A stretch of 64,000 nt of DNA from Antedon mediterranea (Eukaryota > Animalia > Echinodermata). This document shows, piece after piece, positions 4,083 to 37,786 of this stretch (position 1 is its first letter; each line of letters begins with the position of its first letter). The DNA is taken from the NCBI RefSeq assembly GCF_964355755.1, contig NC_092670.1, positions 32,910,388 to 32,974,387 of the forward strand. The letters are read 5' to 3'. The notes beneath the pieces were generated by a model. The model was not told where the DNA came from. It was given only the letters and a program-made list of their open reading frames with translations, and did not search any database. The position numbers were made by a program, and so were the translations under genes.

Positions 4083-5738
4083 TGAACTATCCAGCTATGA
4101 AGAGAAATGAACAACGTGGACAACGACAACACCACCACCGACACCACCACAACCAACATCACCAACAATAGGGGCTTTTCGTTAAAAGACTGTTCATGGT
4201 CAGGGCTTTTTGTCGCCATAATGGGACGCAATGGTGTTGCATGATTCATTAATGTTAAGTAAAATATCGTATGGTGGCCAGTCCTTATATGGAAAGTCTA
4301 TATTGAGGACAATATCGCTCTCAACGGTCTATATCAAACCACTATTGGACATTTTTTTTTTGCAAATGGTCACGTAGCAGATGTATTGGTGACTCTGTAG
4401 CATGTAACTAAAACAATTACTCCTGATTATCAGTTCATTTGTACAATTAATTATTTTGCACACGTTTACATACATTAAAAGGTCGACTTTATTACGTGAT
4501 GAACAATTTTTATTTTAACAAACACCATTTTAATAATCTTTAAAATACTCACCTCAGCCATAAGCATAACTGGTTGAGAAAATTATATGTTCCTAAAACT
4601 GCAATATACAGAACTGATTTCAAATATGATTTCAAAAGATGGATCCTATTTTAAGTAAGTAAAACTTCTATTCTGTTGTTATTAGAGAAATAAAATAATG
4701 AAAGATTGCAACATACCTTTACGGTTTGTTTTTTTTTTTTTTAACTATAAACAGTAATATTGAACACTAGTTATAAGTAATACAGTTCTTGTGATTTTTC
4801 TAGTTTAACAACTTGTTTACCCTTTCAAAATAATTAAGGTTCTAATTAGATAATTAAAAAATGTATCGTTATTCTCCCGGCACCCCACGGGTGCTGGGGA
4901 ATTTAAATGTATGTTTATGTTGTGATTTCAACAGTTTTTCTTCATCAAAATGAGCTATTCGACAGGCAGTGGTACCATTCTGGATTTTCTGGATTAAAAC
5001 ACAAAAAAAAGATTATTATAAATGATTATTTGATATCAGAAACTCAGCAAACATAATTGCGATCATTACCGTCACAACGCACACTCTTTAGAAAAAATAC
5101 CCATCTAGTAATAAAACCCCCATTGTAATTTACAGCCATGTCAGCAACTATCACCATCCCTCATCATAAATACAATCGAACCGCAACAATCACAACCAGT
5201 CACCTGAGCCTCTTCAATCAACAACACATCCAGGACAACATTAGGTTTAAAATTCAGCGAGTTTGATACGACGAAAATACTTCCTAACCATCTTTGGACT
5301 AAAACAGCCTTTCTAAAATCTAGACTCATCCACCACTAACATCATCCCTTGGTATCTGCAATTAACATCCATTGATATCCCATCATCAATGCAATCAGCA
5401 TCCAACCAGCTTAAAGAGACGGGGATGGGTCCTCTAAAAACGTACCTGTTTTGAAGGCGTCGCAGCGTCTTTGATACGCGGATAAACGACGTCACATTGA
5501 TGCCACCAGATATCGATCTTTGACACTGGGAGTGTCTGCTTCTTAATGTTCTTCTTGCTGCTAATAATAAGATCAATGTTAAGAAGAAGCACGTTTAGAG
5601 ATTAACAACATATTTATATATCAATGTTGAATATTAAATCGGTAACAACAAGAAATGTAACTATTATCAGTCCGTGGATATCAAATCGTCAACTGAACTC
5701 TCAGTCTCTTGATTTATACTTGGTAGTAAATTACACAC

Positions 5739-8329
5739 CTTCAACCATAATCAAGAAATTGCAGCTTCCACTATTTCTAGATGGATCCTTAACATCGAAC
5801 ACAAACCGGTGACTTCCAATCTCAAGAACAGCGGGAAATACATCTACTGGATCTGGAGAGATTTTCAATGGATTGTCTGAGTTGTCAGTTGCAATTATAT
5901 CGGCTGAATAATCAACAGTGGCCGTGAGTTTACCGAAATCAGTGACTACAGTAACATTTTCATTCGGACATGTCAAACTTGGCCTTTCCATATCTATGAA
6001 AACAAAAGAAAAATAAACAAATGACTTGATTTTAATACGGTGTATATCCATCCTAACAAAAAATATATTAGGTAGTATTTTACTATACCTTGAACCAATA
6101 TTGTAAAATTGCAGCTCCTTCTGTTATTAGAAGCATCCGTAACACTGAATAAAAACAAATGACTTGCAATCTCAAGAACAGCGGGAAATACATATACTGG
6201 ATTTGGATAGATTTTCAATGATTCGTCTGAGTTGTCGGTTGCACTAATATCGGTTGAATAGTCAACGGTGGCCGTTGGTTTACCGAAATCAGTGACGACA
6301 GTCAAATTGTCAGCCGGGCATTTCAGAACAGGATCTTCCGTATCTATGAATGCAATTTATAATAAATGAAATTTAAACACATTATACGATGTATATATAA
6401 ATCCAGTCTAGCAACAACAATACTAGGTAGTGTTTCACTGTACCTTCAACCAATATTGTAAAATTACAGCTCTCGTTATTGTTACAAGCATTCTTAACGT
6501 CGAATACAAACAGGTGACGTCCAATCTCAAGAACAGCGGGAAATACATCTACTGGATTAAGAGAGATTTCCAATGGTTCGTCTGAGTTGTCAGTTGCAAC
6601 AATGTCGGTTGAATAGTCAACAGTGGCAGTTGGTTTACCGAAATCAGTGCCTACAGTCAAATTGTCAGCCGGGCAGGTCAAAACAGGCTTTTCGAAATCT
6701 AAACAAATTACAAATAATTCAGAGTTTGTCCGGTACGCCTATATGAAAGAAACACATTTTTTAAACGATTGACGTGGTAAAAATTAGCGGATTTGTTAGA
6801 CGACAAAATTAGTATGATAATTTTATGAATGGGTGTACTTACACTTTTCACATATAGCTATCCTATTATCGGAACATGATATATCATTCCAAGTACCATT
6901 TTTATTTTCCACTATAACAACACAATCTTCACCACCTGTTTTGTCGTTTGGTTCATAAGTAAGCCTATACCAATCTAAAGGATCGGATAGTGTTGAATAA
7001 TAACTAGAGGATTTTGCGCTCAAATGTTGACTTTTAGTCCCACATATAAACTTTTGATGTTGAAAGGAAACTTCGTAGTAAGTACTGTTTATTTTGTATC
7101 TTATATATCTTACTAGATGGATTAAAACGGCAAATAAAATATCTATATATAAGGATCTATAACTATAACGTTTGAAAATAATATTTTTGTTAAATATCTT
7201 ATTTGACTTTTCTGACGCAAAAAAAAATTATTTTACAAAATACATGCAACATACTTGTATAATTTAAACTGCTTCCTGACAACCATACAAATTCGCCTTC
7301 TGTTTTGATGTCATTGTAGCCAATCCAAGCAGCGTTTGGCGTAGAATTTTCAGCAGCTTCAAGTCGTGCAAGTATCCACGAGTTTTCGTTTTCATTTGCA
7401 ATTTCTACCAAATCACCATTGAAACTCTGGCATGTATTTCTCATTGAATCCATTGTACCAACTGTACATGTAATCAAATAGCATTTAGTGGTTTCATCGT
7501 AATAGCTCCATCCATTTTGACACCCTGAAAATGGAATTGTTCTAATAGTTCTACATGACCCTACTATTTACCTACGAACATTACTATAGACTAGTCAGTA
7601 TACATTCTTTTAAGAATTAGATAATACAGTAATACAAGTGACAACATGAGACTAAACCGTTTTTCGACCTAATAAAATACTATGTATCACAAACATATGC
7701 ATCCCTTAAAAAGATAATTTCTTGGCACATATGAAGTTTCATACATGTAATACTAAACAATTTATACAAGGCCATATACATGGCTGCAGTCGCGTGCTCA
7801 AATTTGAGTTAGTGTTTACCGACCGACCAACCAACCGACATAGTGAGCTGTAGAATCGCGGGACTAAAAATGAAGACTGGTTGAACAACACAGACAAAAA
7901 CAATAATTACAGACATGGTGCAGGTCTAGTGAAAATATGTATTATTTAAAATTTAGAAGTAGTAGAATAAAAACTTTAATTTTCCTGTTTTAGATTTATC
8001 TTGCTGATCGAAAAGCTTAGAAATTTGAAAATTAGTAGAGAATACATTTTTGTTTTATGCCTAAATTTTAGAAGCATTTTAAAAGTTTATAAAAAAGATA
8101 CAGAATGGATTTTGGTTCAAACTTCACAAAAAATGTAAGTGACATTGTTGACAAGGTCTCACCTTTAGTTACACTAAACTAGGATTATAAATGCAATAAG
8201 ACAAACGTTCGGAGGCATAGTGGGCTCCTAACATAACATTTAATAACCATTATTTCAAAACTCACCATCACAAATGACGTAATGTGTAACAAACAAAATT
8301 AGCAGTAATATACGTCCTCTTGGTCCCAT
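5739..8329 (-). CDS. Receptor paralog A, 5' exons: signal peptide, C-type lectin, 3 HYR domains (probable adhesion GPCR continuing leftwards)
   Basis: GT-AG exons with compatible phases: 8266-8329 (MGPRGRILLLILFVTHYVICD), 7255-7524 and 6843-6974 (CTL: CQNGW...AWIGYND...EPN...C...WNDISC), and 6444-6698, 6089-6343, 5739-5993 (255-nt HYR exons). Clearly paralogous to gene B. Downstream exons not resolved. Confidence 0.85.
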
Positions 8330-9657: not shown

Positions 9658-10686
9658 GTATGTAATTATTGATAACCGTCGTTCAAATAAAAGGTGAGAC
9701 TGAACCTACACAAACGAGTTGTTCTGTTAAGTGTATTTCAATACTTCTCACTTATAGAAGCTTCGGAAGTTTAAAACATTAATGAGTAAGTAGTATTATT
9801 CTGAGTAAAACAATAGTTATGCCAACTGGTCTTTTAACTTTTCGAATGGATTCTGTCAACGCTAATTTGGCTGGAGTGTCCATCGGAAGCCTTAGCATGT
9901 CCGGTCCATTTGTATTTTCTTTTCCTTATTATGTTTGACCATTTCAGTTCTTCCCTAGGTTGGTTCTTTACATTTTTTTTGGTAAATGGTAGATAACAGT
10001 GCGATGAATTCTACTACAAATAGTACACGGCAGTTTCAAACGCGATATCCGAGACAAAAAGTGTTTACAACGCGCTTTTGATTGATACGCCTGGCGCGAG
10101 CCTTGAGCAGCTATTTATAGCCCACCAACATCGAGCGAAATGTTTACATTAGCTAGCTATAAACAGAGAGTGTATCATACGAAGTAAATACAGTCTTACA
10201 ATGACAAATTAATAAAGTTTTCCTCGAATCTTACAGTGTTTGCTTTATTATTGTATTTTGTATTAGGGAAAATTGTCTAGGATTAAAAAATATTATTAAA
10301 AAAGCGAAATTTTAACGATGTTTGCGATAGTTTCAAAAGCTGAAAATATACATAAATAGCGCCCTCACGGCGAAAGTTTATCGTCGCGGTAAGTTCAAGC
10401 TTTTGATCGTCTGATAGCAAATCTCTGCAATTTTTTCGAGCAACACCGTTAATTCCAAGTGAAAGCGGAGACTTTATTCTTTATTTAGCTCAAAATTCAG
10501 GCTGACGTCTACTTTCAAATTGATTTGAGCTAAATTTGAAATTGACTTATTTCTGTTCAAAATTCCAGTGATTTTATAGGTAAAAATAGGCCTAGGGCAA
10601 AGTTAATTATATATTTTTTAAAGAATTGTGTATTGGTTTTGCATTGACTGTATGTGGTATGTTACTGTTATTTATTGTCTTGTGAA

Positions 10687-13600
10687 ATGGAGTACCATAC
10701 ATATGCATTGAGTAATTTATGTCGTGTATGTGGTGTCAAGTTAACACGAAATCAGCGAAAATTTGACCTAACTAAAGTAAAAGATAGCGTCCTGACATTT
10801 TTAAATATCGATTTAACCCATGAAAACAAAGATGTACATCCACCATTCATTTGCAAGAACTGCCAATTTTCAAGCTATAACAAGGTTAGCACAACTCAAA
10901 GGTACATCTGGAGACAACACACACAACAATCATGTTTCACATGTTATTTATTATCAGAACAGTCAAAACCAGGTAAGAGACTAAAACAAGTAAAACTCAA
11001 CACATTATTTTCTGAAACAGAATGTGACGTTATTCCATCAAAATTTACAGTCAATGACAAAATCAATTCTGAACCTTTCATTTGCCAAATATGCAACTCG
11101 ATTTTGTCTTTCAACAGTCTTGAGTCAAACTGTTCACATCACTATTGTTCTAGTTGTATGTATAATTTGTTTAGTACCCTCCATGTTAACGTATGTTCAT
11201 GTCTTGTGTGCGCAAAGCCAATGCACATGCTGGAATTTAAACCCGCCTCCCAAATTGTAATAGAGTCTCTAAAATCACTAGAATTACAATGCTCGTGCAA
11301 TAAGTTCATAAAATACTCTCAACATCAGAGACATATTTGTGAACACCAGACAACTAAAGAAGTGGTTTATCATAATGTTTCAAAAGCTGTATCAGTGTTA
11401 GAGAAATCACTAGAAGATAGTCATGTCTCCCAAACAATACAAACGTTTGCAGAAAAAGTTGTTTACAATCAACTAAAGAAAAGTAAGGAAATGCTGATTG
11501 CAACAAATGGTCGGGTGAGTGCTTTAAAACAAATTCTGTAATTATCATATTGCATGTTATAAAAAGTAGATTAATATTATTATAACAGAATTGTTAGCAT
11601 AAAACATACAAATACAATTCCTATCTACAGCCAGCAAAGATTGCTATCATACCAAACACCAAAGTCTCAAGTGATAAGGCCAGTTCTCGAACTGTTTCAA
11701 GACGAGCAAATAGCATCAGCAGCATCATAAAATCAGTTGGCAATAGTGAGGCTGGTGATTTCCATCAAAAAGTGTACTCAGCCAAACATATGAGTCAAGC
11801 GGTCTTAAAAGCAGCCAACATAGCATCAACTTCGTCTATAGATACAGATAAGGCTCTGGCAATGGTGTCAGACTGCCATCTGGCATGGAACCAGCTACGA
11901 AAGCTAAGAAGGTAAACAAACAATTATGTGATTAAATAAAACCATGCATGAATACAGGCATTTTAGACACAGTCAAGTATGTCTAGTAATAAAGCGAGAC
12001 TACATTATTAATCCTTTTTATGTACTAGATATGTGGAGAAGGGGACAATACCATCAGAGAAAAGGATGCGGCAGCGGCAAAATGATCTCATTGGGGATTA
12101 TTTTGAATCCACAATGGAAATGCTATGTTTTAGGTCTGAGACGTCCCCAGACGGGATAGAATTAAGATCAACGCCTACTGTCAAACTGAAAAACATTAAA
12201 AAAGTTGTATTTTCATATCTTGATGAACACTCAAGGTACGCTGAAGTTAAATTTTAATATGTGCTTACAAAGTGTAGAACTTACTTTTTAGGACTTTACT
12301 TTTGTTCCTATGGATTTGCTATGGAAATAAAAGTTAAAAGAAATTAATTAAAAACTGAATTAATATTTACTAAATTTTTTTACAGACTGAACAACCTATC
12401 TCCCAATAATAACGAGATTTGGATAAAGTTTGGCGGGGATAAGGGAGGTGGAAGTACCAAATTTGAGGTACAGATATGTAGCCTCGCCAAACCAAATTCA
12501 ATTAACAACATCATCGTCGTACTAATATTTGATGCCCCTGACATGATGTTTAATATTAACCGGACTCTTCCGGAAGTGGCCCACCAAGTTGTTGCTTTGA
12601 ACGGGGAAAAATGGCGGTAAGAATACAACTAGTATATCAACTTAATTATGTGGATGCGTATACAAGTAATAAAATAAAAATATATGTATAATTTCTTTCA
12701 GCAATTACACACTGAGAGTTTTCTGTTTTGGGGACTATGAGTATCTAACAAAACTCTATGGATTAAATGGACCAAATGGTAAACTATTAAATTATTTTAT
12801 CATTATTTAATTTATACAAAATCTTTCTAAGCCAATTAAAAAAATGCTAAAATATGCAGTAATACAGTATAAATAAAATTTTTATTTATACTGTATTACT
12901 GCATATTTTAGCATTTTTAAACATTGTGAAAAAATTTGAATACTTTTAGCTCGATACTGCTGTCTCTTTTGTGAAAAACCAAAAGCAGAAATGCAATTAA
13001 AGGCACCACCCGCCAAACAGCGATCATTGGCTTCAATCAGAGCCAACTATAGAATGTTTATGGAAGATGGCGGAATTGAAAGCCGATCTAAGGATGTTTC
13101 CATGAGCGTTGTTAATAATCCCTTAGTATCAATTGAGGTAGATCATGTAAGTACATCAGTTTTGTTTTTAATTATCTTTATATTAGAGAAACAAATGTAC
13201 TTACTTCATTATATGGCACTGTTGGTATTAAAATTTATATCTTTTAGGTGTCTGTTCCTAGCCTGCACTTGTCATTGGGCATATTCAAGAAGCTCTTTGA
13301 TATGCTTGAGACGGAGGCGCACAGCATAGATTGCCTCATATATTCCCTAAGGAAAAATGGAGAACTTGATGACACTTCTGAATCAAAGTTTGATAAAATA
13401 ATTCAACATCAGATCCAAACACAAATTGATATCAAAGAAAAGATTGAAGAAAAGAAATTAAAGTTGACTGAGATGGAGGATGCAATGCCATTAATCTATC
13501 TTAAAGGAAGTGTTGATGGTAGCATCATTACCAATGTGGGAAAGATAGTCAAATTGAGAGAAGAGATTGAGTCACTGGTAAGTTACTCAAACAATAAATG

Positions 13601-14611
13601 ACATAGATGCGTCTTGCCAGACACATACTCTAAAGACAAAACTTGTATTATATTTTATTTTACAGACAAAATGCATGGAAAATGGGCTTCCATTTGGAAC
13701 GGGTCCAATTGTCACATCACTGGAGCGTGTGCTACAAAAAAATCGCATCCAACGGCAAGCCTATCATGGTAAATCATTTATTGGTAACCATGTTCATAAA
13801 TGTTGTCAGGTAAATTAACTATTCTTTTAATTGATATTGTTTCAACTGTTAATTATTAAAATTGTAGTTTTTAAAATGTATATTTGTTTTTAATAGGACC
13901 ATGTTAGGAATGAACTAGTGAATGCTCCACTACATGAAATGAAAATTCAAGAAGCTGAGATTCCTATCGGAAAAATTCAGCTAATTGACAAAAGAGTAAA
14001 AGAATTGGTCACCAAGTACGATGCACTCCTTTCAAAATTTTCTAGGGTTCACAACAACTTGAATCATTCAAAACCTGTCACAGATGTTGATATTCAAGGA
14101 AATGGTAATGTAATTATGCTTACCTTTCAAGGTATTCCTTAGACATGCCATTGTTTCTTTTCCTACAACACACTGCAACTGTTTCTTTTCTCTTCTACAA
14201 AAAAAATTCAGATGAAGCCATAAAAGACTTTATGGAGGAATATCGAAAAACCAACAAAAGTATATCTCCAAAATTACATATGCTCGAGGAACATGTCATT
14301 CCCCAATTAAAGGCTTGGAGATTTGGTCTGGGACTGGTTAGCGAGCAAGGTGGGGAGTCTATTCACGCCGCGCTTAATAAAAGGAAAAGAACAGTTGCTG
14401 GGATGCATGACAGACTTGGACAGTTAACATCCATGATGCGGTCACATGCAATTACCACTCAGCCATGCATAATAGAAGAAATAGTTGAACCCAAAAGAAG
14501 AAAAATTGGTAACAATTTACACTTTATTGATTACACTATTTGTGCTTTTTAGCTCCCTGCTCACCAAAAATTAAATAAACCTGTTTATATTTTTCAGAAA
14601 AAGAAGAATAA
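10687..14611 (+). CDS. Spliced RAG1-like/Chapaev DDE transposase, about 937 aa, 11 exons
   Basis: Exons 10687-11514, 11631-11911, 12029-12235, 12386-12616, 12702-12778, 12950-13146, 13248-13577, 13666-13809, 13897-14104, 14212-14508 and 14598-14611 are all GT-AG and join to a 2814-nt open frame. Motifs: H-x7-CRVCG...HPPFICKNC...WRQH..SCFTC, RING CQIC...CSHHYCSSC...CLVC, NGRP, GGDKGG, FGDYEYL, CLFC, PSLHLSLG, PKLHMLEEH, SEQGGESIH. The last tiny exon is the least certain. Confidence 0.9.
12840..12918. repeat. Perfect palindrome with 39-bp arms in transposase intron 5
   Basis: AAAAATGCTAAAATATGCAGTAATACAGTATAAATAAAA, a single T, then its exact reverse complement. Confidence 0.9.
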
Positions 14612-15904
14612 AGTACACGACAATGAATGCGAAATAAAAGAAAATATAGGCTTACTGATAAATCTGACGGAGTGCCATCTTCTTCTTTATTATGGATTCT
14701 CTTATGAACCACACTTGCATCAATAAAGTAGTCGTACTTGTTTGTGTTGGTGGTATTTTTGGAACCTGTAGTACAATTTTTGAATTATAAATATTTATCA
14801 TCATTATTTAAAAAAATGGTGGACTAGCGATTGAAATACATGATGAAATATTATATTATAATTAGGACTATACTGTCAAAATTAAAATCAAAATTTTATT
14901 TTTTATTCTACAAATGCAATGCTGTTGCTGCCATAGTTTAGTAATATTCAAGCCATAGGAAGATAGACTATGATATTTTCACATTTTCTACTGTAGAATA
15001 ACTTAGGCCCTCATGAAAGCTAGTTAGTAAGTATACCTATCCTCCTAGGCCTACCTATGTCTTGATGGTACCATATTAAAAAATTAGGCCTAGCCTAGCT
15101 AGATAGAGCTGTTACTAAAGCCTGGCCCTGCTGATTTCCCCTCTTAACGACATATACTTGGGCTAGGCCTACTAAGAGTATATTATTCTTATTCTAGGCC
15201 TAGGCCTATACAGTATTTATTTTTCGTGGCTTAAACCTAGTACTAGGTGACAAACCTTTGTTAGGCCTAGGCCTTTAGCAGCACACCCACGTGTGCAAAA
15301 CAGGCAAATGGGCCCCGACTTTCTGTGTATATAATTATTAAACTGGATTAGACGTCAGCGAGATTTTTTAAATATTGTTTATCAAGTTTTTGAATTTTCA
15401 CATCGACTAGGCGCCGATGTTTATGTAAATTGCAAAAAAAATATATAACCTCACCATTACCCTGTAATTAAACTGCTATTTTTTACTGTTTTTTGTCGCA
15501 AAATAGACGTAAGATTTCAATACTCATATCTCGTGAAGTCTTGAGAAACGGAGTGACCGCTGGCTTCGAATATCAATTACACGCCTTCTTCTTCGAATAT
15601 AACATGAATATTCATTAAATTTTCAATTATGACACTGTCTATTGGTCAGTTTATTCCCTCTCTTTTACCAGGGTATTAAAAATAGTCTTCCGGGTATTTA
15701 AACTAGCGCCCTCTATAACATAAAATAAGAAAAAGCGAGCATCGAAACTATAGAGGGCTCACCACTTTTTGTCTCGCTGGAAACTGCCGTGAGTATCATT
15801 GTGTTACTAAATAGGCCTATATAAGCCTATAATACAATATTGTGTGTATAAATGTTGCGTGGTTTCGGCGACGCGAGACACGTGTGTCAGATAGGCGATA
15901 GCGA

Positions 15905-17916: not shown

Positions 17917-20900
17917 TAGGCTAGTCAATCTAGCAAAAAAAACAGCCCAAAGTGAAACAAATTGCAAACAGAGATTTTTCTTTTTTAAATGGTCATATAT
18001 GATGAGGAGATCAAAATTTGAGCATCACACCTCTGTCACTCATCCCGATGATATGCAAATTAGCTTAAATATGCAAATTAGGGTGAAATTACAAGGTTAC
18101 CATATCTCAAAAACTACTAGTCCGAGAGAGTTGATTTTTTCACTGATCTATTCAAAATGTATATATTTATATTTACTCTAATGAAACATTTTACGAAAAA
18201 ATGACCGGAAGTACAACATTTGACCTTCGACCTCATTTCTCAATGTTTGCATATACAATGTGACTAAAATGTCTGTAGAGACTTTATTTTGCCCTCAAAT
18301 GACCCAGACATAGGTTCCTAATAGCCAGCATAGGATCACTTTGTAATTCCCAAAATCACACCTTTGTCACACACCTCGAAAGTATGCAAATTAGTAGTAC
18401 AATTTAAATAAAATATGCAAATAAGGAGAAAAAATTACAGTTGTCCTATATCTCGAAAACCACTAATGCTAGAGAGCTGATTTTTTCACAGCCGTATTCA
18501 AAATGTACATATTTCTATTTGCTCCAATGAAACATTTTACAAAAAATTGACCGGAAGTATGACATTTGACCCTCGACCCCATTTCTCAATAATGCATGAA
18601 ACTAAAATGTCTGTAGAGACTTTGTTTTGCCGTCAAATGACTCCGATACAGGTTTCTAATAGCCAACATAGGACTGTTTAGTAGATCTCAAAATCACACC
18701 TGTATCACTCACCTCCAAAGTATGCAAATTAGTACAAGTTACATGAAATATGCAAATTAGAAGGTGAAATTAAAGGTTCCTATATATCGAAAACCACTAA
18801 GGCTAGAGAGTTGATTTTTTTAATAACTTGTTCAGAATGTACATATTTATATTTACTCTAATGAAACATTTTATGAAAAAATGACCGGAAATACAACAAT
18901 TGACCCTCGACCCCATTTATTAATGTTTGCATACATAATGCGACTAAAATGTCTGTAGAGACTTTGTTTTGGACTCAAATAACTCGGATATATGTTTGCT
19001 ATAGTCAGCATAGGACCGCTTTGTAATTCCCAAAATCACGCCTTCGTTTTGGCATGGTTGGAATTCCCTTTTTTCGTATTAGTTTATGTACAGCGCTTAG
19101 AGGTTACACAACATTAGGCGCTATATAAATCCAGGATATTATTATTATTATTTCTCAATATTTACATATAATGCAACTAAAATGTATGTACAGACTTTGT
19201 TTTGGCCTCAAATGACTCGGATACAGGTTTTATATAGCCAGTATAAGTCAAGCACCTCGAAAGGATGCAAATTAGTAGTACAAGCTATATGAAATATGCA
19301 AGTTACAGTGAATTGCCTTATGTATCTCGAAAACGCTAATGACCGAGAGAGAGATATGGCAACTTTCTTGTACTACTGATTTGCATACTTTCAAGCGAAG
19401 TAACAGAGGTGTGATTTTGAGAATTACTAAACAGTTCTATGCTGGCTATAGAAAACCTGTATCTGGGTCATTATTGAAAAAAAAAATTATCAAAAGTATG
19501 ACATTTGACCCTCGAACCTATTTCTCAATATTTGCATATAATGCAACTAAAATGTATGTACATACTTTGTTTTGGTCTCAAATGACTTGGATACAGGTTT
19601 TATATAGCCAGTATAGGATCGTTTAGTAATTCCAAAAGTCAAGCAACTCGAAAGTATGCAAATTATTAGTACAAGTTATATGAAATATGCAAATTACAGC
19701 CTTATGTATCTCGAAAAACGCTAATGACCGATAGAGATATGGCAACTTTCACCTCTTGTACTACTAATTTGCATATTTTCTAGGGAAGTAACAAAGGTGT
19801 GATTTTGAGAATTACTACAGTTCTATGCTGGCTATAGAAAACCTGTATCTGAGTCATTTGAGGCCAAAACAGTCTGTACAGATATTTTAGTTGAATTATA
19901 TGAAAATATTGAGAAATAGGGTCAAGGGTCAAATGTCATAATTCAATCAAGACAATTTTTGCATAAAATGTTTCATTACAGCGAATATAAATATGTACAT
20001 TCTGAATCAACTCTGAATTCAAATCAACTCTCTAGCATTAATGGTTTTCGAGATATGGGAAGACTGTAATTTCACCCCTAATTTGCATATTTCATGTAAC
20101 TTGTACTAATAATTTGCATACTTTCAAGGTATGTGACAAAGATGTGATTTTGGGAATTACAAAGAGGTCCTATGCTGACAATAGGAAAACTGTATCCGAG
20201 TCATTTGAGTCCAAAAAAATTATCTACAGACATTTTAGTCGCATTATGTATGCAAACATTGATAAATAGGGTCAAGGGTCAATTGTTGTATTTCCGGTCA
20301 TTTTTTCGTAAAATGTTTCATTAGAGCAAATATAAATATGTACATTCTGAACAAGTTTTTGAAAAAATCAACTCTCTAGCGGTTTTCGATACATATAGGA
20401 ACCTGTAATTTCATCCCCTAATTTGCATATTTCATGTAACTTGTACTAATAATTTTCATACTTTGAAGGTGAGTGATACAGGTGTGATTTTGAGATTTAC
20501 TAAACATTCCTATGTTGGCTATTAGAAACCTGTATCCGAGTCATTTGAGGGCAAAACAAAGTCTCTACAGACATTTTAGTTTTCATTATATATGCAATAT
20601 TGAGAAATGGGGTCGAGGGTCAAATGTCATAGTTCCGGGAATTTTTTTGTAAAATGTCTCATTACAGCAAATATAAATATATACATTTTAAATATTTTGG
20701 TGAAAAAATCAACACTCTAGCATTAGCTGTTTTCGAGATATGGCAACACTGTAATTTCACTCCCTAATTTGCATATTTAATATTACTTGTACTACTAATT
20801 TGCATACTTTCGAGGTGCGTGACGAAGTTGTGATTTTAGGAATTATAATACAGTTCTATGGTGGGTATTGAAAAACAATATCCAAGTCATTGAGTCCAAA

Positions 20901-21260
20901 ATAAAGTCTCTACAGACATTTTAATCACATATTTATGTAAATATTGAGAAATGGGGTCAAGGGTCAAAATCTGGTACTCCCGGACATTTTTATGTAAAAT
21001 GTCTCATTAGAGCAAATATAAATATATATATTCTGAACCAGACTGTGCAAAAATGAACTCTCTACGATTAGTAGTTTTTAAGATATGGTAACCCTGTAAT
21101 TTCACCCTAATTTGCATATTTAAGCTAATTTGCATACCTTCGGGATGAGTGTCAGAGGTGTGATGCTCAAAAAATAATCACCTTATCATATGTAACCATT
21201 TAAAAAAAAAAATCTCTGTTTGCAATTTGTTTCACTCAAAATGCTAGATTGACTAGCCTA
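17917..21260. mobile_element. Non-autonomous Academ-like foldback element made of inverted arrays of roughly 300-360-bp units
   Basis: Termini TAGGCTAGTCAATCTAGCA and TGCTAGATTGACTAGCCTA, 3-bp TSD GGT, long inverted arms of repeated units. TAG...CTA ends with a 3-bp TSD fit Academ. Confidence 0.75.
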
Positions 21261-21326: not shown

Positions 21327-23876
21327 TCTTCTTCTTCTTCTTTCCCTTTTCAGGGAATTTATTGGTTCAAAGTATATTGGCCTTTGGCCCTAATACAAAC
21401 AAATACAAATTAACTATAACTTAAGATAATGGTTTCTTCTTTCAAAAGCAAAGTAGACGTATTTTCCTAAATTATAAGTAAAATTTGTGTTGGAAAGTAA
21501 TAAACAAAGCTTATTAATAGAAGGAAAAACACGAATAAATCTTGGAATAAAACTTTTTTTTAAATCATTGTAAAATGTGCATTGCAAAATAAAATGATAT
21601 TCATCCTCAACAATGTTCTTTTTACATAATTTACACGTTCTCTTATATCTTTCTACACCCTCCCATCTGCCCTTTTCAATTTCTAGCTCTAATATCCCTA
21701 AACGTAACTTAGTTAATAATCTTCTTTGTTTAAAATTAATGATGTTGGTCAAGTGATAACTTAAACATATTTCTTTTTTATAAAGAGAAAAGAGCCTTAA
21801 CTTATTATGTGAACTAAATTTTTGAATGCATTTTTGTTTTTCAATATCACATAAGCGCAACTTAAATTCTCTCAAAAATAAACCTTTACTATTAACATAT
21901 TGTTGTAACCATATATAACCAAAACCAGTAGAAAAGAGTAAGTGTTTGACCTGTTGTGCCCAACAATTCTCATTACGGTTAACTTTTCTAAGTTGAAATT
22001 CATAACACTTAAAAATGAATCTGTCATGATCTAAAGTAATAATATGTAACCAAAATCTTATAACTGTAACTAAACAATCCACAGAAAGTGGTAATCTACC
22101 TAACTCAGAAGTAACAGCGGCATTTGGTGCATTTTTTCCAACTTGCAATAAATATCTACAAAATTTAGTATGTGTTTTTTCTATAATGTTTGTGCTATCT
22201 GACATTCCCCAGATTTCGCTTCCATACGTTAAAATAGGAAGTATTTTCACATCAAAAATATGGTTCCATGTATTAATTGGAAGAAAAGATAAGTTACGAT
22301 AAATGAATGATTTTAAGCAGAATAAACTTTGATTTGCTTTTTGTTGATTATGTTGCATTGAGTTGTTCCATGCACCATTTGAACTAAAAATAACACCAAG
22401 ATAATTATACGAATTAACAATTTTTAATTGAATATTTTTATACTTCCATTTTTCAATGTTCCTTAAATTGCGGCCATTTTTAAAAACCATAATTTTGGAT
22501 TTTGTAGTGTTTACAGTAAGTTTCCAAGTATCACAATAAAGTTCAAGTTTATTTATTAATTTTTGGAGACCTTTCACCGTATCACTAACAAGCACTAAGT
22601 CATCTGCATAAAGAAGATGATTCATATGACAATCTCCAATTTGAATGAAATCGTTTACCTGATTAAGTATACCACTCAAATCATTAATGTAAATATTAAA
22701 GAGTAAAGACGACAACGGAGAACCTTGTTGTACTCCAATCGAACAATTAAAAGATGGACTAAGTTTGTTGCCAATTTTAACATGAGCAGATAAGTTTTGG
22801 TATAAGGAATTTATTATGTGTAACATTCTGCCTGAAACACCGATACATTTCAACTTATGTAGTAAAAGTGTATGATTTATAGAGTCAAAGGCACGTTTAA
22901 GATCAACAAAACAAACAAAAATCCTACCCCGCTTTTTATCTAAGTATTTAGAGATGAGGGTATCTAAAATGAATATATTATCTGTCGTTCTATATCCCTT
23001 ACGAAAGCCTGCTTGTTCCTCATGAATTAACTTTTTACTATTTGTAAATTGTGTTAACCTAGAATTAAGAATATTTAAAAATATTTTTCCTAGGATTGGA
23101 ATTAAAGAAATACCTCTATAATTTTCAGGTTTGTTTTTATCTCCATTTTTAAAAATTGGAACGATTAAGCTTGTTGCCCATTGTTTGGGAAATTTTTCAA
23201 CTAGAAATATGGCGTTAAAAAGAATTTTTAAATAATCAAAAATAATGTTGGGGGCGTTTAGCAAAAATTCAAAATTCATTCCATCAATGCCGGGAGCTTT
23301 TCCACTATTTTGAGAATTAAATGCTTTTTTTATTTCATCCAACGTTATGTCGTGGTCTAAATTATCATCGTCTTCATTCTGTTGGCATTCTGTGATTTTT
23401 GGCAACTCAGCGCTACCAATAGACTCATCGTTTTTAAATAGGTTCTTAAAATGAATATAACATTGATTAATAGAAAGTTCGCAAGATAATTTCTGTTTTG
23501 TCTTCAACTTCATCCAAAACGTTTTGCTATCCTTTGTATTGAGTGAATCGATAATTTGTTTGCGTATTCTTTTATGAAAGTTATTTTTTTTGCATTTTAA
23601 TAGCGATTTATATTGCTTTTTTATCTGAATATAATTATTTAAAAAAGGTTGAGTGCGCATAATTCTAAATCTCTTTAATGATTGTTTAACCTGCATTTTA
23701 AGGTTCTTACAATCTTTATCAAACCATTCGTTTCGTTTTGTAGAAGTTGAAGATTTACTTGTTTGTGTATACTTAATTCCTTTACATACGTATTCAAAAA
23801 TTTTACATAAATGTGAAACTGCCTCACATTTATGTAAAATTTTTGAAAAGTGCATCATTAAAACTGCATTTGACAT
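21327..23876 (-). mobile_element. 5'-truncated LINE (RTEX/CR1-group-like) with uninterrupted RT ORF 21414-23876
   Basis: KAPGIDG, PENYRGISL, EEQAGFRKG, FVDLKRAFD, QQGSPLS, LYADD and C-terminal CKLC...EDEYHFILQC. (GAA)n tail at 21327-21340. No endonuclease domain visible. Confidence 0.9.
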
Positions 23877-26800
23877 ATTAAAAATAATTTAAAAAGAAAT
23901 AAATATTATACATTACATGGTTAAACCATTACATGGACGTATAATTACATCTCGTCTTCTTATAACGAACACTATAGGCCTACCAAGCAGCATGTTGCGA
24001 ACATGTGCATGGGGGAGGGCCATAAGAAAGCTTTACATTTCACACATGCATTGTATACGGTCAAACCTTCTCACCCGCCGCTGAAAAAGGGGCCGTTTTG
24101 ACCTGGTATTTCGTGTGCTAATCGAGTCGAATGCAGTTTTAATGATGCACTCTTGGCGTTCCATATCTGTTCGTTTGTTCGTGTCGACACATTCAGTATC
24201 AAATGTCAAATGGCGATATTTCTGTATTTTTTCAATCAATTGCTTGCTTGCGAGTATTAGGCCTATATAAGGTATGGTTTAATTAAAGATCTTTGGTTAT
24301 GTTCGGCTTCGGGATGTTATACCATACTTAGGCCTAGGCTAGGCTATTATAGGGGTCGTCGGTTTCGTGTTATGGGTCGTCCAATTCTAGGTCGTCCAAT
24401 TCGAGGTCGCCCGGGTCGTTGGGGTCGTCCAATTCGAGGTCGTCGCTTTCTACACACCCATCGAGACTGTTGAAATATGAAATAAGGTAGGCCTACATAA
24501 TACCACCACCGGCACACAACAGGATTCACACACAACAGACAGGGCTACACCACTACACAGAACAGGACATGGTCTGGGTGGGAATTAAATCAAATTATAT
24601 CCGCGTAATATTAAATCAGGGAGATGTAAATTACATCTCCCTGATTAAATGATCCATATAAAATCCTTTCTAGCCTTCAGAAACTTTCATCAATGTACCC
24701 AAGTACACATTGTTTAAACGTAACATAGCGCATGCGTACCATCTTATTTGTTGAGTCTTTGAAATTCTGAAATATGAATATTAAAACGGTGTACGAGTGA
24801 GTAGCCAATCGCATGCAGCTGAAACTAGTCAACCGGATAATCTATACACCAAGAATTCTTGGTGTCAAACCACTTGACTTTTGCGTGTTTTTCCCCAGAC
24901 GGAGTATCCAAACTCAAATAATACACGTATGAAACGCCATATGTGCAAAAATATTTATATTTTTACTAATATTAAGAAAAAACTCCGTCTGGAGCCCAGA
25001 CTATAATTAATACATCATTTAATCGACTTACAATGCGCTAGAACGCCAAAGTTTCCAGGGGCCGTCGGCCCCCACCCCCACCCCTTCGCGGCCCCCTGGT
25101 CCTTCAGCCAATGTTTGCTCGCTTCACTCGCGAAGGTACGCCCCCTATTCAAATATCCTAGATCCTGAATTCGTCTACACTTCAGCGAAGCGAGCTCACA
25201 CACCCTCTAGTTGTAAGTAATTAACAGTAAAATTCAACATTTATTTATTTATTTATTTATTTATTTGGAATTACACCTTTAGATCGGTGGCACACTTAGC
25301 ACAAAGGTGCATCCTTCACACAATAACAATATTATAAAATATAACAATTAACAGAAAAGTCAACCCCATCCTACCCCCCCCCCCCCATTTACATCGATAC
25401 GTACAGTAGATCATTACTTTACACAAATGAATACAAAACAAAATATAGTAAAAGTGTATTAAATAAAATCACCTGACTAAACACAGGTTATTACGTAAAC
25501 CCACCAACCCCCTCACCTACCCCTTTTCAATTTACTTAATGTAGCAATGTAGATAACAGCTACAGTTGGAATAGGATAGGATGACCTCTTGTAGAATCCA
25601 ATGCCATTGGCTGTTTAATAAATTTACAATACTGTACTGTCTGAGAAGGTGGAATTTGTATTTATAACAGTTGAGTTTGCCTTTCTATCAGCAACTTGTA
25701 TTTTTATCAGCTTCTGAACTCGGAATTTTACTATAATTCTGGTAAGTGCAGCTTTTCTTTATTAGTATTTATCGGATATCCATACATTAGCCGTTTTCAA
25801 GCAGGCCTACTAGTACTTGTTATTAAGACATAATATATTAGCAAGAAGGTCATGTTCGTCATTTTGTAAGTATTTCAACTCTGATTCAGCTTAAATTTCA
25901 AACTACTGTGAGTAGTAGTAAATCTGTGAGTTCTTTTTATTCTATTTAACTTTTCTTTTTAATAGCCTGTTTTATCATGTTTTTTTATATATTATATTCC
26001 TTCTACCAAATAGGGAAAATACCCGATTGTCTCTGTGACCATTCACAAACAGCGGGAGCTCACGCTGAATTCTCGCACCGTCATTTTGTTTAAAAAAAAT
26101 GGATAATTTGTTTGTCTTTACAACGGCATAACTCATGAAATACTAATCTGAAAATGTCCCCAGACTACATCAAAGTTCAAATAATATAGTGGTGGATGTT
26201 ATGATATATATTTTAACATAATCAGAGGAAAAAACCGTCACATTTTGCTTAAAAAAACTACTTGGTCAACCTATAAAAGCGTAGAGGCCACGTTTTTATG
26301 ATTTAAATTCATCCTTGGCGTCACTCAATAGATATAATTGATACATAAGACTGCCTCTCACTAAAGACTACATTGTTTCTGTACATGTCAAAATTATGAT
26401 TTGCTTAAAATTGACAATCCAATTATCGCGCGAACATTGTTATAGTTTGGAATTCACCATTACCGTGAATGACTGAATTGTGGTCGAAGAAATCATATTT
26501 GCTTGTTTACGAGTAACTGTTATAATAAAGAATAATTAAAATTAGTTCGAAATAAAATTACTGGTGCCATGTAAAAAAAATTCTTTGAACACTATAGTTT
26601 TGATAAATTTCATGTTGAAAACATTCTACCCATATTATAATGGACGATCCAAGGCAGATTCCAAATAATGCCTCATTTTACGAGGGATTGGCAAATTTAG
26701 GGCTATATATAGACTGTTTGTTTAAGGAGGTATTATTATTATTAGGTTGAAAATAAAAAGGGAAGAGATCCAAATAGAAGTATTTAATATTGTTTACGGT

Positions 26801-32447: not shown

Positions 32448-34210
32448 TTATAATAATAATATTTATTCGGTCATGAATGTAAAAATAACCAGGAATGAGA
32501 ATAGGCTAAAGCCCAAACAGATTCTGCACTCACTCCATACAATACAATCAGTTAAAGATAAAACCATATACAAGAAAAATACAAATAAATTATACATAAC
32601 ATGAAATATAGTGTTTTGTTAGAGCAGCCTTAAATATTGAAATTGTTTGTGAATCTTTTATGTCATTTGGTATTTGCTCCCATAGTCTAGGAAAGGAAAC
32701 AAATACAGAATTATGAAAAGTATTGCCTTTCGAATTCCAACGTAAAAGCCTACCCCGACATCTTTTACTAGTTTTAATATACTCATTGAAAGAATGGGGA
32801 CAGTAACCTTTCAACACCTTAAATCCTAATGAAAGTCTATGTAATTTAAACAAGTCATCAATAGATAATAATTCAAGCAATTTCAACCTATGAAAATAAG
32901 ATGTGTCCCAGGAACCTTCCTTTCTAAACATTATTATCCTTGTTGCTTTCCTTTGTATACTTTCTATTCTATTAATATATGATTTCTCAAATGGTGCCCA
33001 CATTGAACAACAGTAGGTAACCACTGGAAGTAATAGAGCTTTGTATAAGTTCAACATAGCTAACCAGGACATATTTTTACTACATTTTGAAATGAAACCA
33101 AGCAATCTGCTTGCTTTACAACATATATAATTAACTTGTGTATGACAAGACAACGAACTATTTACATAAACACCTAGAAATTTGAATTCTGTAACTTTAG
33201 GAATATTGTCTGATTCTATGGTATAATCCCAGTTAACTATCTCTTTACATCTTGTAACATGCATTACGGCGCATTTGACAGGATTTAAGGGAAGTTTGTT
33301 TACATTTGCCCATTTAGCAATTAAATCTAAATCCTTTTGAAGCAATTTACAATCATTATTGTTATAAATAGGACGTGATAATGTGTGATCATCAGCAAAT
33401 TGAAAAAGTGAAGAAGAAATATTATTTACAATATCACTTACATAAATCAAAAATAAAAGAGGGCCCAAAACTGACCCTTGTGGTACCCCTGAAGTAACAT
33501 TTACCCACTCTGACTTTTCTCCTCTGTAAATAACCCTTTGGCGTCTATTTGAAAGACAATCTGTAATCCATGCATTAGTGTTTCCACCAATGCCACAGTT
33601 ATTAAGTTTCTTAATTAATCTTTTATGAGACACCTTATCAAATGCAGACGAAAAATCAAGAAAAATAATATCAATATTTTTACAACCTTTAAGTTCTAAG
33701 CTCTGTGCCCATGAATGAAAAACCTTTGAAAGTAAAAGTTCAGTACTATACATTTGTCTAAACCCAAACTGATTTTCTGAAAGGATATTATTATATTCTA
33801 GATATTCCCTTAAGCGATAACAAAAGCAATTTCTCAATAATCTTACAAATTATGGGAGTTAAGGACACTGGACGATAGCTTTTCATTTCGTCTTTGGGGT
33901 TTCCATTTCTTTTGAAAATAGGTACAACATTTGCATCCTTCCATTGTTTTGGTAAAATACCTTTTTGTAAAGTTAAATTAAAGAATGTACATAAAACATT
34001 AGACAATTGTGTGTTACATGACTTTAAGAATATTGGAAGCAAACAATCAGGTCCTGGTAATTTGGATACATTTAACTGTGAGAGGGCATAAAATACCTCA
34101 GGCATCACAAAGGGTTCACATTCAAAGTTGGTAAGACAATCTATTGTATCCAAATCACAATGCTGATCATTATCTATGCAAAAGTTGTTTACAAATTGTG
34201 TATTGATAAA
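32448..34210 (-). mobile_element. 5'-truncated CR1/L2-group LINE with a frameshift near 33810
   Basis: ORFs 33791-34153 and 32590-33837 join: PGPD, WKDANVVPIFK, YRPVSL, QFGFR, DFSSAFDKVSH, GVPQGSVLGP, FADD. (ATT)n tail near 32448-32465. Confidence 0.9.
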
Positions 34211-36315: not shown

Positions 36316-37786
36316 TACGGAAGCCCGTTCGAGCCACAAGTTAACTATATTTTAAAAGCTGTTATCTGGCGGCGCCACTTAATTATCTGGTGGCCGCAGA
36401 TAATTAAGTGGCGGCCGCCAGATAATTAAGTGACGCCGCCAGATAACCCGTCACGTGACATATACGTGCATTGGATCAGAGGCGATGTTGCATATGGAAC
36501 GCCATCGCTTCCTCCGGCAGCAAACTTTAATTCTATTCGGCTCTTTTAGCATTCGGCGCATTTCTATTCGGCCCATTTACCATTACGTTCGGCTCTTTCA
36601 GTATTCGGCGCATTTCTATTTGGCCCATTTACCATTACGATCGGCTCTTTCAGCATTCGGCTCTTTTTTATTCGGCCCATTTACCATAATACATTCGGCT
36701 CTTTCAGCATTCGGCTCTTTTTTATTAGGCCCATTTACCATTACGTTCGGCTCTTTTTGATTTGGCCCTTTTTTATACGGCGCAATTAAATTCTCACCTT
36801 TTACATGGGGGTCAATGGGAAGAATCAACGGCTGGAAATGAGTTTATGAAAAGTTTACAAAACATATAGATGCAGCATGGTAGAGTGTTTGGTTGGTTGA
36901 ATTAAATGAATTTGAAGGCTATTTCAATATGACTAATCATTTTATTGACATGATTAATGTGTTAGAGAACTTGCAATTGTCCCACCTTATTGACCATTTT
37001 GAGAAAGAAAAGGTTTGATTTATGGCCTAGGTTAGCTAGGCCTAGCCTAGTGTCAGCCTAACATAATAATAATAATTTACCCTTTCTCTCTCAAAGTTTG
37101 TTAAAAGATGAATTAATTTTAGGTTATTCAACACATCTTTAATCGGTTGGCTACTCATGGTTGGCGCCATGATGATAAAATGTTTGTAAACTTTTCATAG
37201 ACCCATTTCCAGTCGTTGATTTTCTTCCATTTGACCCCATGTCAAAGGTTAGATTTTAATTGCGCCATATAAAAAAATGCCAATTTTAAAAGAGCCCAAC
37301 GTAATGCAGAAAGATCCGAATAAAAAAGGGCCGAATCATAAAGAGCCAAACGTAATGGTAAATGGGCCGAATAAAAAAGAGCCGAATGCTGAAAGAGCCG
37401 AACGTAATGGTAAATGGGCCAAATAGAAATGCGCCGAATGCTGAAAGAGCCGAACATAATGGTAAATGGGCCGAATAGAAATGCGCCGAATGCTAAAAGA
37501 GCCGAACGTAATGGTAAAAGAGCCGAATAGAATTAAAGTTTGCTGCCGGAGGCAGCGATGGCGCTCCATATGCAACATCGCCCCGGACCCAATGCACGTA
37601 CATGTCACGTAACGGGACATGTACTAATAATTAAGTGGCGGCCGCCAGATAATTAAGTGGCGGCCGCCAGATAATTAAGTGGCGGCTGCCAGATAATTAA
37701 GTGGCGGCCGCCAGATAATTAAGTGGCGGCCGCCAGATAACAGCTTTTAAAATATAGTTAACTTGTGGCCCGAACGGGCTTCCATA
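36316..37786. mobile_element. Palindromic MITE with 5-bp TSD and internal inverted minisatellites
   Basis: TIRs TACGGAAGCCCGTTCG and CGAACGGGCTTCCATA, TSD CTAGG at 36311-36315 and 37787-37791. Arms contain 22-bp GATAATTAAGTGGCGGCCGCCA repeats and ATTCGGC-rich arrays. Confidence 0.85.

Follow-up and report, generated by a model that had tools for sequence, protein, structure and literature searches.

Can a single transposon gene carry the full order of domains known from RAG1, and are the ends of that transposon built in a way that such a protein could read? The question is raised by a locus in the genome of Antedon mediterranea (NCBI RefSeq assembly GCF_964355755.1, contig NC_092670.1), within the 64,000 nucleotides from 32,910,388 to 32,974,387 of the forward strand. 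We refer to this whole stretch as the window and give all coordinates relative to it. The original prediction, made from the letters of the window, described an intact 11-exon transposase gene with a RAG1-like domain order and a GRP motif that could read the A-tract in the element's own ends. Our analysis identifies the element as a RING-bearing Chapaev transposon, a new and unusually clean member of that group. We put at roughly three in four the probability that it is an intact cut-and-paste Chapaev, likely autonomous and recently mobile, whose spliced, RAG1-core-like transposase likely pairs one short and one long end, with the core on an outer block and helices resembling the nonamer-binding domain (NBD) of RAG1 on an inner block.

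An unbroken, spliced transposase gene

Eleven exons on the forward strand, from 10687 to 14611, join into a stop-free frame of 2814 nt including the stop codon, encoding 937 residues. All ten introns have GT-AG borders, are 85 to 171 nt long and contain 15 to 33% GC, versus 38% in the exons. The open frame first proposed for these introns was therefore confirmed, and the motifs named with it were all present: NGRP at residue 274 (formed across intron 1), SSRTVSRRAN at 294, ALAMVSDCHLAWNQLRKLRR at 351, D457-x69-D527, CLFC (C546/C549), H857-x4-H862 and SEQGGES at 878.

Exon 1 (10687-11514, residues 1-276) encodes a Chapa/NZD-like zinc finger at about residues 4-86, a C3HC4 RING at 133-175 and a C2H2-type finger at 202-220, and its last residues are NGR. 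Exon 2 (11631-11911, residues 277-370) would hold the NBD-like three-helix region and the start of DDBD-like helices, as judged from the model of a relative (P0008, below) aligned to RAG1. M383, the first residue of the NCBI protein P0001, lies in exon 3 (12029-12235). The putative first catalytic residue, D457 in GGDKG, is encoded by exon 4 (12386-12616), together with a match to Pfam DUF1280 (PF06918, E 8e-14), and the second, D527 in FGDYE, by exon 5 (12702-12778). Exon 6 (12950-13146) carries the ZnC2-type pair C546/C549, exon 7 (13248-13577) an LH motif (H614) and a long helical insertion, and exon 8 (13666-13809) a GNH motif; exon 9 (13897-14104) is followed by exon 10 (14212-14508), with the ZnH2-type H857-x4-H862 and the putative catalytic E883, the second E of SEQGGES. 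Exon 11 (14598-14611) comprises 14 nt including the stop, and P0001 has the same ending.

Splicing was assessed in one sequencing run, X1, which we took as RNA because its contigs hold spliced joints; none of the runs is on record as RNA. Introns 3, 5, 6, 8, 9 and 10 were spliced at the predicted coordinates in X1 contigs, including both introns flanking exon 6 and, in one contig, the junction of exons 9 and 10. Introns 1, 2, 4 and 7 appeared only in unspliced form among the X1 contigs listed. P0001 (NCBI/UniRef, labelled Antedon mediterranea, isoform X2) is identical to residues 383-937 except for I450V, which indicates that introns 3 to 10 are used, although this protein may derive from the same assembly and so is not fully independent support. 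The RNA check proposed with the original prediction thus bears out six of the ten junctions, with introns 1 and 2 seen only unspliced.

For introns 1 and 2 the predicted junctions are supported purely by homology. In P0116, the closest relative, residues 1-135 match exon 1 as far as its final codon, and those from 136 onward match exon 2; none of the 45 relatives compared below has a gap at the intron 2 junction. As frame-keeping GT/AG alternatives were listed for both introns (22 for the first and 8 for the second), it is this homology, and not the open frame, that sets the two junctions. Coding differences between X1 and the window were synonymous in 8 of 11 cases, versus 21-27% expected (P at most 0.002). 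Within exons 1 and 2 the count was 5 of 7 (P 0.011), and the N-terminal frame therefore also seems to be under selection.

Intron 5 contains a 79-bp near-perfect palindrome (12840-12918). All three runs show a 44-bp deletion (12836-12879) relative to the window, which indicates that the window copy has a private inverted duplication in this intron.

Domain order, catalytic residues and predicted fold

Scanning P0001 against 1.84 billion representatives identified 2012 relatives at E 0.001, of which the best 150 were fetched; many are 900-1100 residues long at about 30% identity. Conservation counts refer to 45 long relatives. D457, D527, C546, C549, H614, H857, H862 and E883 were kept in 36 to 45 of these, with D457, C546 and C549 in all 45 and D527 in 44. 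L613-H614 supplies the transposase LH motif, so that a DDE triad is accompanied by C(2)C, LH and H(4)H. A profile of the family gave weak colinear matches to the RAG1 DDBD (452-490), the D708 region and the E962 region, the last of which points to E883 as the catalytic glutamate.

At the N-terminus, the best PDB sequence match of exon 1 was the RAG1 RING and zinc finger (E 6e-4). Pfam returned zf-C3HC4 (E 0.013) and RAG1_imp_bd (E 0.049), neither reaching its cut-off, and the family profile matched mouse RAG1 100-401 at E 2.9e-16. Compared by eye, the Cys/His pattern of Chapa, RING and C2H2 finger agrees with supplement 5 of PMC4411706. The Chapa and RING cysteines were both kept in 18 of the 45 relatives, and a core tree of 41 relatives (5 of 46 rows, shorter than 300 residues, were left out) placed the window protein among 11 RING-bearing rows (89/85, not starred).

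Structure predictions pointed the same way. The model of P0001 (window residues 383-937; predicted local distance difference test, pLDDT, 94.9) had only RAG1 entries as its best Foldseek matches (E 1.2e-13, TM 0.58), followed by BbRAG1L (E 9.4e-11) and HzTransib (E 5.5e-7), at 12-13% identity in the fold alignment. The model of P0008, a full-length relative 29% identical to the window protein (pLDDT 89.5), aligned with RAG1 at Z 28.2 over 462 residues (root-mean-square deviation, rmsd, 4.7), with BbRAG1L at Z 25.0 and HzTransib at Z 24.4, and with the RAG1 RING/dimerization domain at Z 11.0 over 107 residues (rmsd 1.9). In an Atlas search P0001 found DUF1280 and cnidarian clusters first, and RAG1 clusters at 0.91-0.94. 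The predicted fold of the transposase is thus that of a RAG1-like core, and in the comparison with RAG1, RAG1L and Transib that the original prediction had suggested, RAG1 ranked first in both fold searches and in the N-terminal profile.

A RAG1-like domain order in an intact and potentially active transposase is upheld. The order itself is not new: Kapitonov and Koonin reported two subgroups of Chapaev in which Chapa, RING and C2H2 domains precede the core, an arrangement resembling that of RAG1 (PMC4411706).

Element boundaries and insertion site

The element spans 5766 bp (10026-15791), starts with CACGG and ends with CCGTG; CACGGCAG stands at both ends, in agreement with the Chapaev terminus definition in PMC4079192. 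Contigs of three runs start exactly at 10026. The sequence AGTA flanks the element on the left (10022-10025) and on the right (15792-15795), and an empty paralogous site at 61362-61422, identical to the joined flanks in 56 of its 61 bases, holds a single AGTA and no element. The duplication is therefore 4 bp, within the 3 to 4 bp of Chapaev. The insertion target is itself a repeat (9979-10025 with 15796-15809), with further copies in the window at 61362-61422 and 53473-53521.

Contig depth over the element was 199-238, versus 9-26 in four listed flank contigs (two DNA-like runs, one sample), and contigs break at the element ends, which suggests many near-identical copies, with the search tool's own warning that contig depth is not copy number. 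No second copy of the element was found in the window by blastn, and no frame longer than 82 residues lies between the transposase stop and the right end. Chapaev3, with a 3-bp TWA duplication and no RING, was considered and rejected, as the element has a 4-bp AGTA and a RING.

Asymmetric ends resembling recombination signal sequences

The left, long end (10026-10063, forward strand) consists of a 12-bp outer block CACGGCAGTTTC, a 12-bp linker and a 14-bp inner block CGAGACAAAAAGTG. The right, short end (15763-15791, reverse strand) has the same two blocks, identical in sequence, separated by a 3-bp linker, so that the ends differ by 9 bp. Read as recombination signal sequences (RSSs), the left end comprises the heptamer CACGGCA, a 21-bp spacer and the nonamer ACAAAAAGT, and the right end CACGGCA, 12 bp and ACAAAAAGT. 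The nonamer matches the consensus quoted in PMC1131882 at 7 of 9 positions, keeping the essential A5/A6, and contains at both ends ACAAAAAG, the commonest core of human immunoglobulin nonamers (PMC8355894). For a nonamer match this good, P is 0.007 if the spacer must be 12 bp, give or take one, and 0.06 if it may lie anywhere from 5 to 30, both calculated post hoc. The heptamers keep CAC; of the two spacers, 12 falls within one base of the 12/23 arrangement and 21 does not.

RSS-like asymmetric ends have been described for some Transibs (PMC1131882) and for PflRAGL-A (10.1101/2023.08.20.553239). We found no description of such ends for Chapaev in the literature searched; the original Repbase Reports (2007, 2008) and the N-RAG-TP paper, outside that search, may already show them.

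The likeness to RSSs might also be incidental: the unlike ends would stem from a 9-bp indel in one linker, the A-tract would be a family-specific binding site, and the enzyme would have no need for two different ends. We give this explanation a little under even odds. The 9-bp difference is smaller than the 10-11 bp of RSSs and PflRAGL-A ends (10.1101/2023.08.20.553239), and an equally good nonamer somewhere at spacers 5-30 has P 0.06. The A-tract block is also absent from the presumed right end, CACGGCAGT, of a distant relative (L120, 2845-2884), the only relative whose DNA was obtained (from genome contigs). Against an incidental likeness, the spacer before the matching nonamer is exactly 12 bp long (post hoc P 0.007 with one base of tolerance either way), and both blocks are identical at the two ends whereas the linker between them differs.

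L120 is a Chapaev-like gene whose 2.9-kb contig was placed in a bacterial bin, where it is likely a eukaryotic contaminant; no relatives with DNA were found in viral contigs. In metagenome contigs the end pattern turned up at 119 loci; their spacer lengths showed a flat distribution, neither tblastn nor blastn matched them to the element, and we took them as chance.

Sense and antisense transcripts

X1 contigs also revealed a spliced antisense RNA within 10026-15791 (reverse strand), with five introns at 11904-12284, 12319-13204, 13347-14123, 14195-14655 and 14766-15454. The joints read CT..AC, that is, canonical GT-AG introns of the reverse strand, with strong donors, four GTAAG and one GTGAG; the strand was assigned from these intron ends alone. 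The joints were absent from the DNA-like runs X2 and X4. If all five joints lie in one RNA, it contains no ATG frame longer than 64 residues, and a RAG2-like or other coding role was rejected on that ground. The antisense RNA overlaps sense exons 1, 2 and 7, which makes a silencing role a reasonable guess; that it actually damps the element is a tentative idea, to which we assign about one chance in three. We found no description of a spliced antisense RNA on Chapaev in the literature searched, which did not extend to the original Repbase Reports.

These transcripts bear on a second alternative, in which the element is intact and yet mostly silenced or split. RNAs keeping intron 1 or 2 would yield a zinc-finger product of 284 or 370 residues, possibly a repressor, and a shorter RNA would yield a 555-residue core lacking the NBD-like region. 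Either intron, when retained, stops the frame at once, giving precisely such products without the catalytic core; P0001 starts at M383; X1 contigs cross introns 1 and 2 unspliced; and antisense joints are deeper (24-101) than sense joints (5-13), in contigs that do not show RNA level. Part of this may have another source. Unspliced cover of intron 1 is also expected from the last antisense exon, intron 2 lies inside an antisense intron, contigs from this one RNA run drop rare forms and show neither level nor strand, and many relatives are full-length single proteins. We consider this alternative unlikely.

The NBD-like region and the NGRP motif

The original prediction saw a nonamer-binding-like region here, with NGRP as the counterpart of RAG1 GGRPR. 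The region finds support in a structural model; the place given to the motif does not. In the P0008 model, helices 356-373, 377-390 and 393-402 occupy the place of the RAG1 NBD, and in chains that include the NBD they align to RAG1 392-459; 9 of 30 RAG1 rows extend into the NBD. Eight of these nine begin in one register (model 346 to mouse 392, 350 to 395, 354 to 402 and similar), read from the first and last aligned pairs, with zebrafish rows converted by an offset of 19 from the same table. An Atlas search with the NBD/DDBD part of P0008 gave scores all below 0.9 and no RAG1 cluster.

In this register RAG1 R391 falls on window residues 282-285, not on R276. NGRP (274-277) lies 6-9 residues upstream of that site, between two predicted strands that form a beta-hairpin in the P0008 model. 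Across the 45 relatives the NGRP site is a G-x-P turn, GQP in 17 and GRP in 4, with GRP followed by R or K in none. The in-register positions 285-288 read NTKV in the window protein; among the 45 relatives, 10 have KPRK and 17 have x-P-R. Directly before helix 1, where RAG1 has its GRPR/K hook, the window protein thus has no such motif; its nearest candidate reads GRPA and is out of register. By these models an NBD-equivalent region is present, NGRP is a neighboring motif that likely forms a hairpin turn shortly before the site equivalent to GRPR, and the window protein's own hook is degenerate. R276 may nevertheless contact DNA, and it is plausible that the NBD-like region reads the inner A-tract block.

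That NGRP is after all a true RAG1-type GRPR hook, reading the A-tract of the element's own end, seems quite improbable to us. Its spacing is attractive, with R276 76 residues before the DDBD-like LAM helix and RAG1 R391 77 before LAI; P0116 also has NGRP, and ACAAAAAG is at both element ends. Residue 276, however, is Q in 21 and R in only 7 of the 45 relatives, and the placement of the motif between strands, the lack of a following R or K throughout the family and the common register of eight alignments all speak against a hook.

A GRP-type basic motif (for example KGGRPKK) was seen directly after the Chapa domain in 12 of the 45 relatives (P0006, P0014, P0041, P0044, P0050 and others), and is visible at this place in the published alignment. 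This motif is a second candidate for an A/T hook; at the same position the window protein reads SKPGKR.

Comparison with known systems

For Chapaev, PMC4079192 gives CAC/GTG termini, duplications of 3-4 bp and three transposase motifs, C(2)C, LH and H(4)H; by these motifs Chapaev, Transib and RAG1 form one clade (PMC12730594). A 2026 preprint links the Chapa domain to the RAG1 N-terminal finger and states that its function in Chapaev lacks experimental validation (10.64898/2026.01.24.700457). The element shares its CAC...GTG termini, 4-bp duplication, Chapa-RING-C2H2-DDE order and C(2)C, LH and H(4)H motifs with Chapaev-1/2_BF, -1/2_NV and -4/6/7_HM (PMC4411706, PMC4079192). It differs from RING-bearing Chapaev, as described in those sources, in its ten introns, spliced RNA, antisense RNA and two-block 12/21 RSS-like ends.

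With RAG1 and the 12/23 RSSs the element shares domain order, predicted core fold (Z up to 28), the D/D/E residues and zinc ligands, NBD-like helices in P0008, heptamer-spacer-nonamer ends and a 12-bp short spacer. It differs from RAG1 in that its core is only 12-17% identical, GRPR is not conserved at the aligned position, and both a long helical insertion and an additional beta-hairpin ahead of the NBD-like helices are present; it also has no RAG2, a 4-bp duplication and a 21-bp long spacer. Its ends resemble those of PflRAGL-A (10.1101/2023.08.20.553239), where a conserved block likewise adjoins the heptamer, another block is A-rich and nonamer-like, and the two ends differ in length (by 10 bp there). 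RAGL elements (ProtoRAG/BbeRAGL-B, PflRAGL-A), as described, have RAG2L, a CCGHC tail and 5-bp duplications, and PflRAG1L-A has a true GRPR/K, none of which is found in the element. Transib is alike in its single gene, core fold (HzTransib Z 24.4), RSS-like ends and, in some families, 12/23 asymmetry, whereas it lacks Chapa and RING and typically makes 5-bp duplications, in contrast to the long N-terminal zinc-finger region and 4 bp seen here (PMC1131882).

Identity as a RAG1L/ProtoRAG or Transib element close to the RAG1 ancestor, which the first rank of RAG1 in the fold and profile searches and the joint presence of RING, NBD-like helices and RSS-like ends might suggest, is already contradicted by the 4-bp rather than 5-bp duplication, by the absence of a RAG2-like frame and of a CCGHC tail (the pattern CX2CX3GHX4C occurs neither in the window protein nor in any of the 151 proteins fetched), and by a core that carries DUF1280, has 2012 relatives at E 0.001, gave no sequence match to RAG1, RAG1L or Transib in PDB at E 10 and aligns in fold at 12-13% identity, and we regard it as scarcely credible.

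A proposed mechanism and its significance

As a cut-and-paste Chapaev, the element would be moved by a transposase dimer that binds both ends and has no RAG2 partner, by analogy with RAG1 and Transib chemistry. From the predicted fold and the same chemistry, the catalytic core would read the outer block and cut next to CAC, and joining of the ends to the target with a 4-nt stagger would produce the 4-bp duplication. Since the protein lacks a CCGHC tail, the NBD-like region is the best candidate reader of the inner 14-bp block, which it would meet at two distances from the end, 9 bp apart; we give this step about an even chance.

Several observations weigh against such an element. No transcript spliced at introns 1 and 2 was found in X1, where contigs span both unspliced, and the only annotated protein found begins at M383. 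A full-length annotated protein containing exon 1 was not found (0 of 655 candidates when exon 1 was compared with longer proteins, weak evidence by the search tool's own caveat). Three of the 11 X1 coding differences stem from a single contig of depth 4.6, and the depth that suggests many copies carries the caveat given above. The three-helix NBD was folded only in the P0008 model, at 29% identity to the window protein, and the NBD-including alignments have an rmsd of 5-10 A; the window protein moreover lacks the family's basic residues at N285, T286, S299 and I309. At the ends, the spacer pair is 12/21 and not 12/23, the heptamer matches CACAGTG at 4 of 7 positions, and the L120 end has no A-tract block.

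Whether the RAG1 N-terminus came with the core or was a later addition is a point on which PMC4411706 disagrees with PMC1131882 and PMC8355894. It is conceivable, and in our view doubtful, that Chapaev keeps a working NBD-type reader and needs one short and one long end, in which case the asymmetric heptamer-spacer-nonamer logic behind the 12/23 rule would predate the split of Chapaev from Transib and RAG. Were this true, the intact element described here, which has the whole RAG1-like N-terminus but lacks RAG2, would represent that ancestor as a living model based on a single protein. The main value of the locus is that 12/21 ends on an intact, transcribed element make the age of asymmetric end recognition testable, and an unbroken, transcribed Chapaev with defined ends is ready for transposition, binding and structure assays. 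If the 12/21 pair is needed, asymmetric end pairing reaches beyond Transib and RAGL-A; if not, the element is an ordinary yet useful member of an uncharacterized superfamily.

Other features of the window

About 2.5 kb from the left end of the element, exon-like frames of a host gene lie at 5731-7567 on the reverse strand; we take them to encode three repeated HYR-like units and a C-type-lectin-like domain. An 824-residue open frame at 21414-23888 (reverse strand), with shorter similar frames at 32590-33849 and 48113-48667, presumably represents a LINE reverse transcriptase. Foldback-like arrays at 17976-21212 and 36378-37740 contain inverted units of about 340 bp, and inverted arms built of 22-bp and 52-bp tandem units. 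The region 42889-47327 has long inverted arms (313 bp at 97%, and more) around 44694-45350, which we assume to be a reverse-transcriptase-like fragment. Identical 137-bp direct repeats bound 54131-58966, presumably a long terminal repeat retrotransposon-like element, with frames at 54250-55707 and 55927-58545 that we take to be gag-like and pol-like; a perfect 265-bp inverted repeat (55694-55958 and 58504-58768) flanks the second of these frames.

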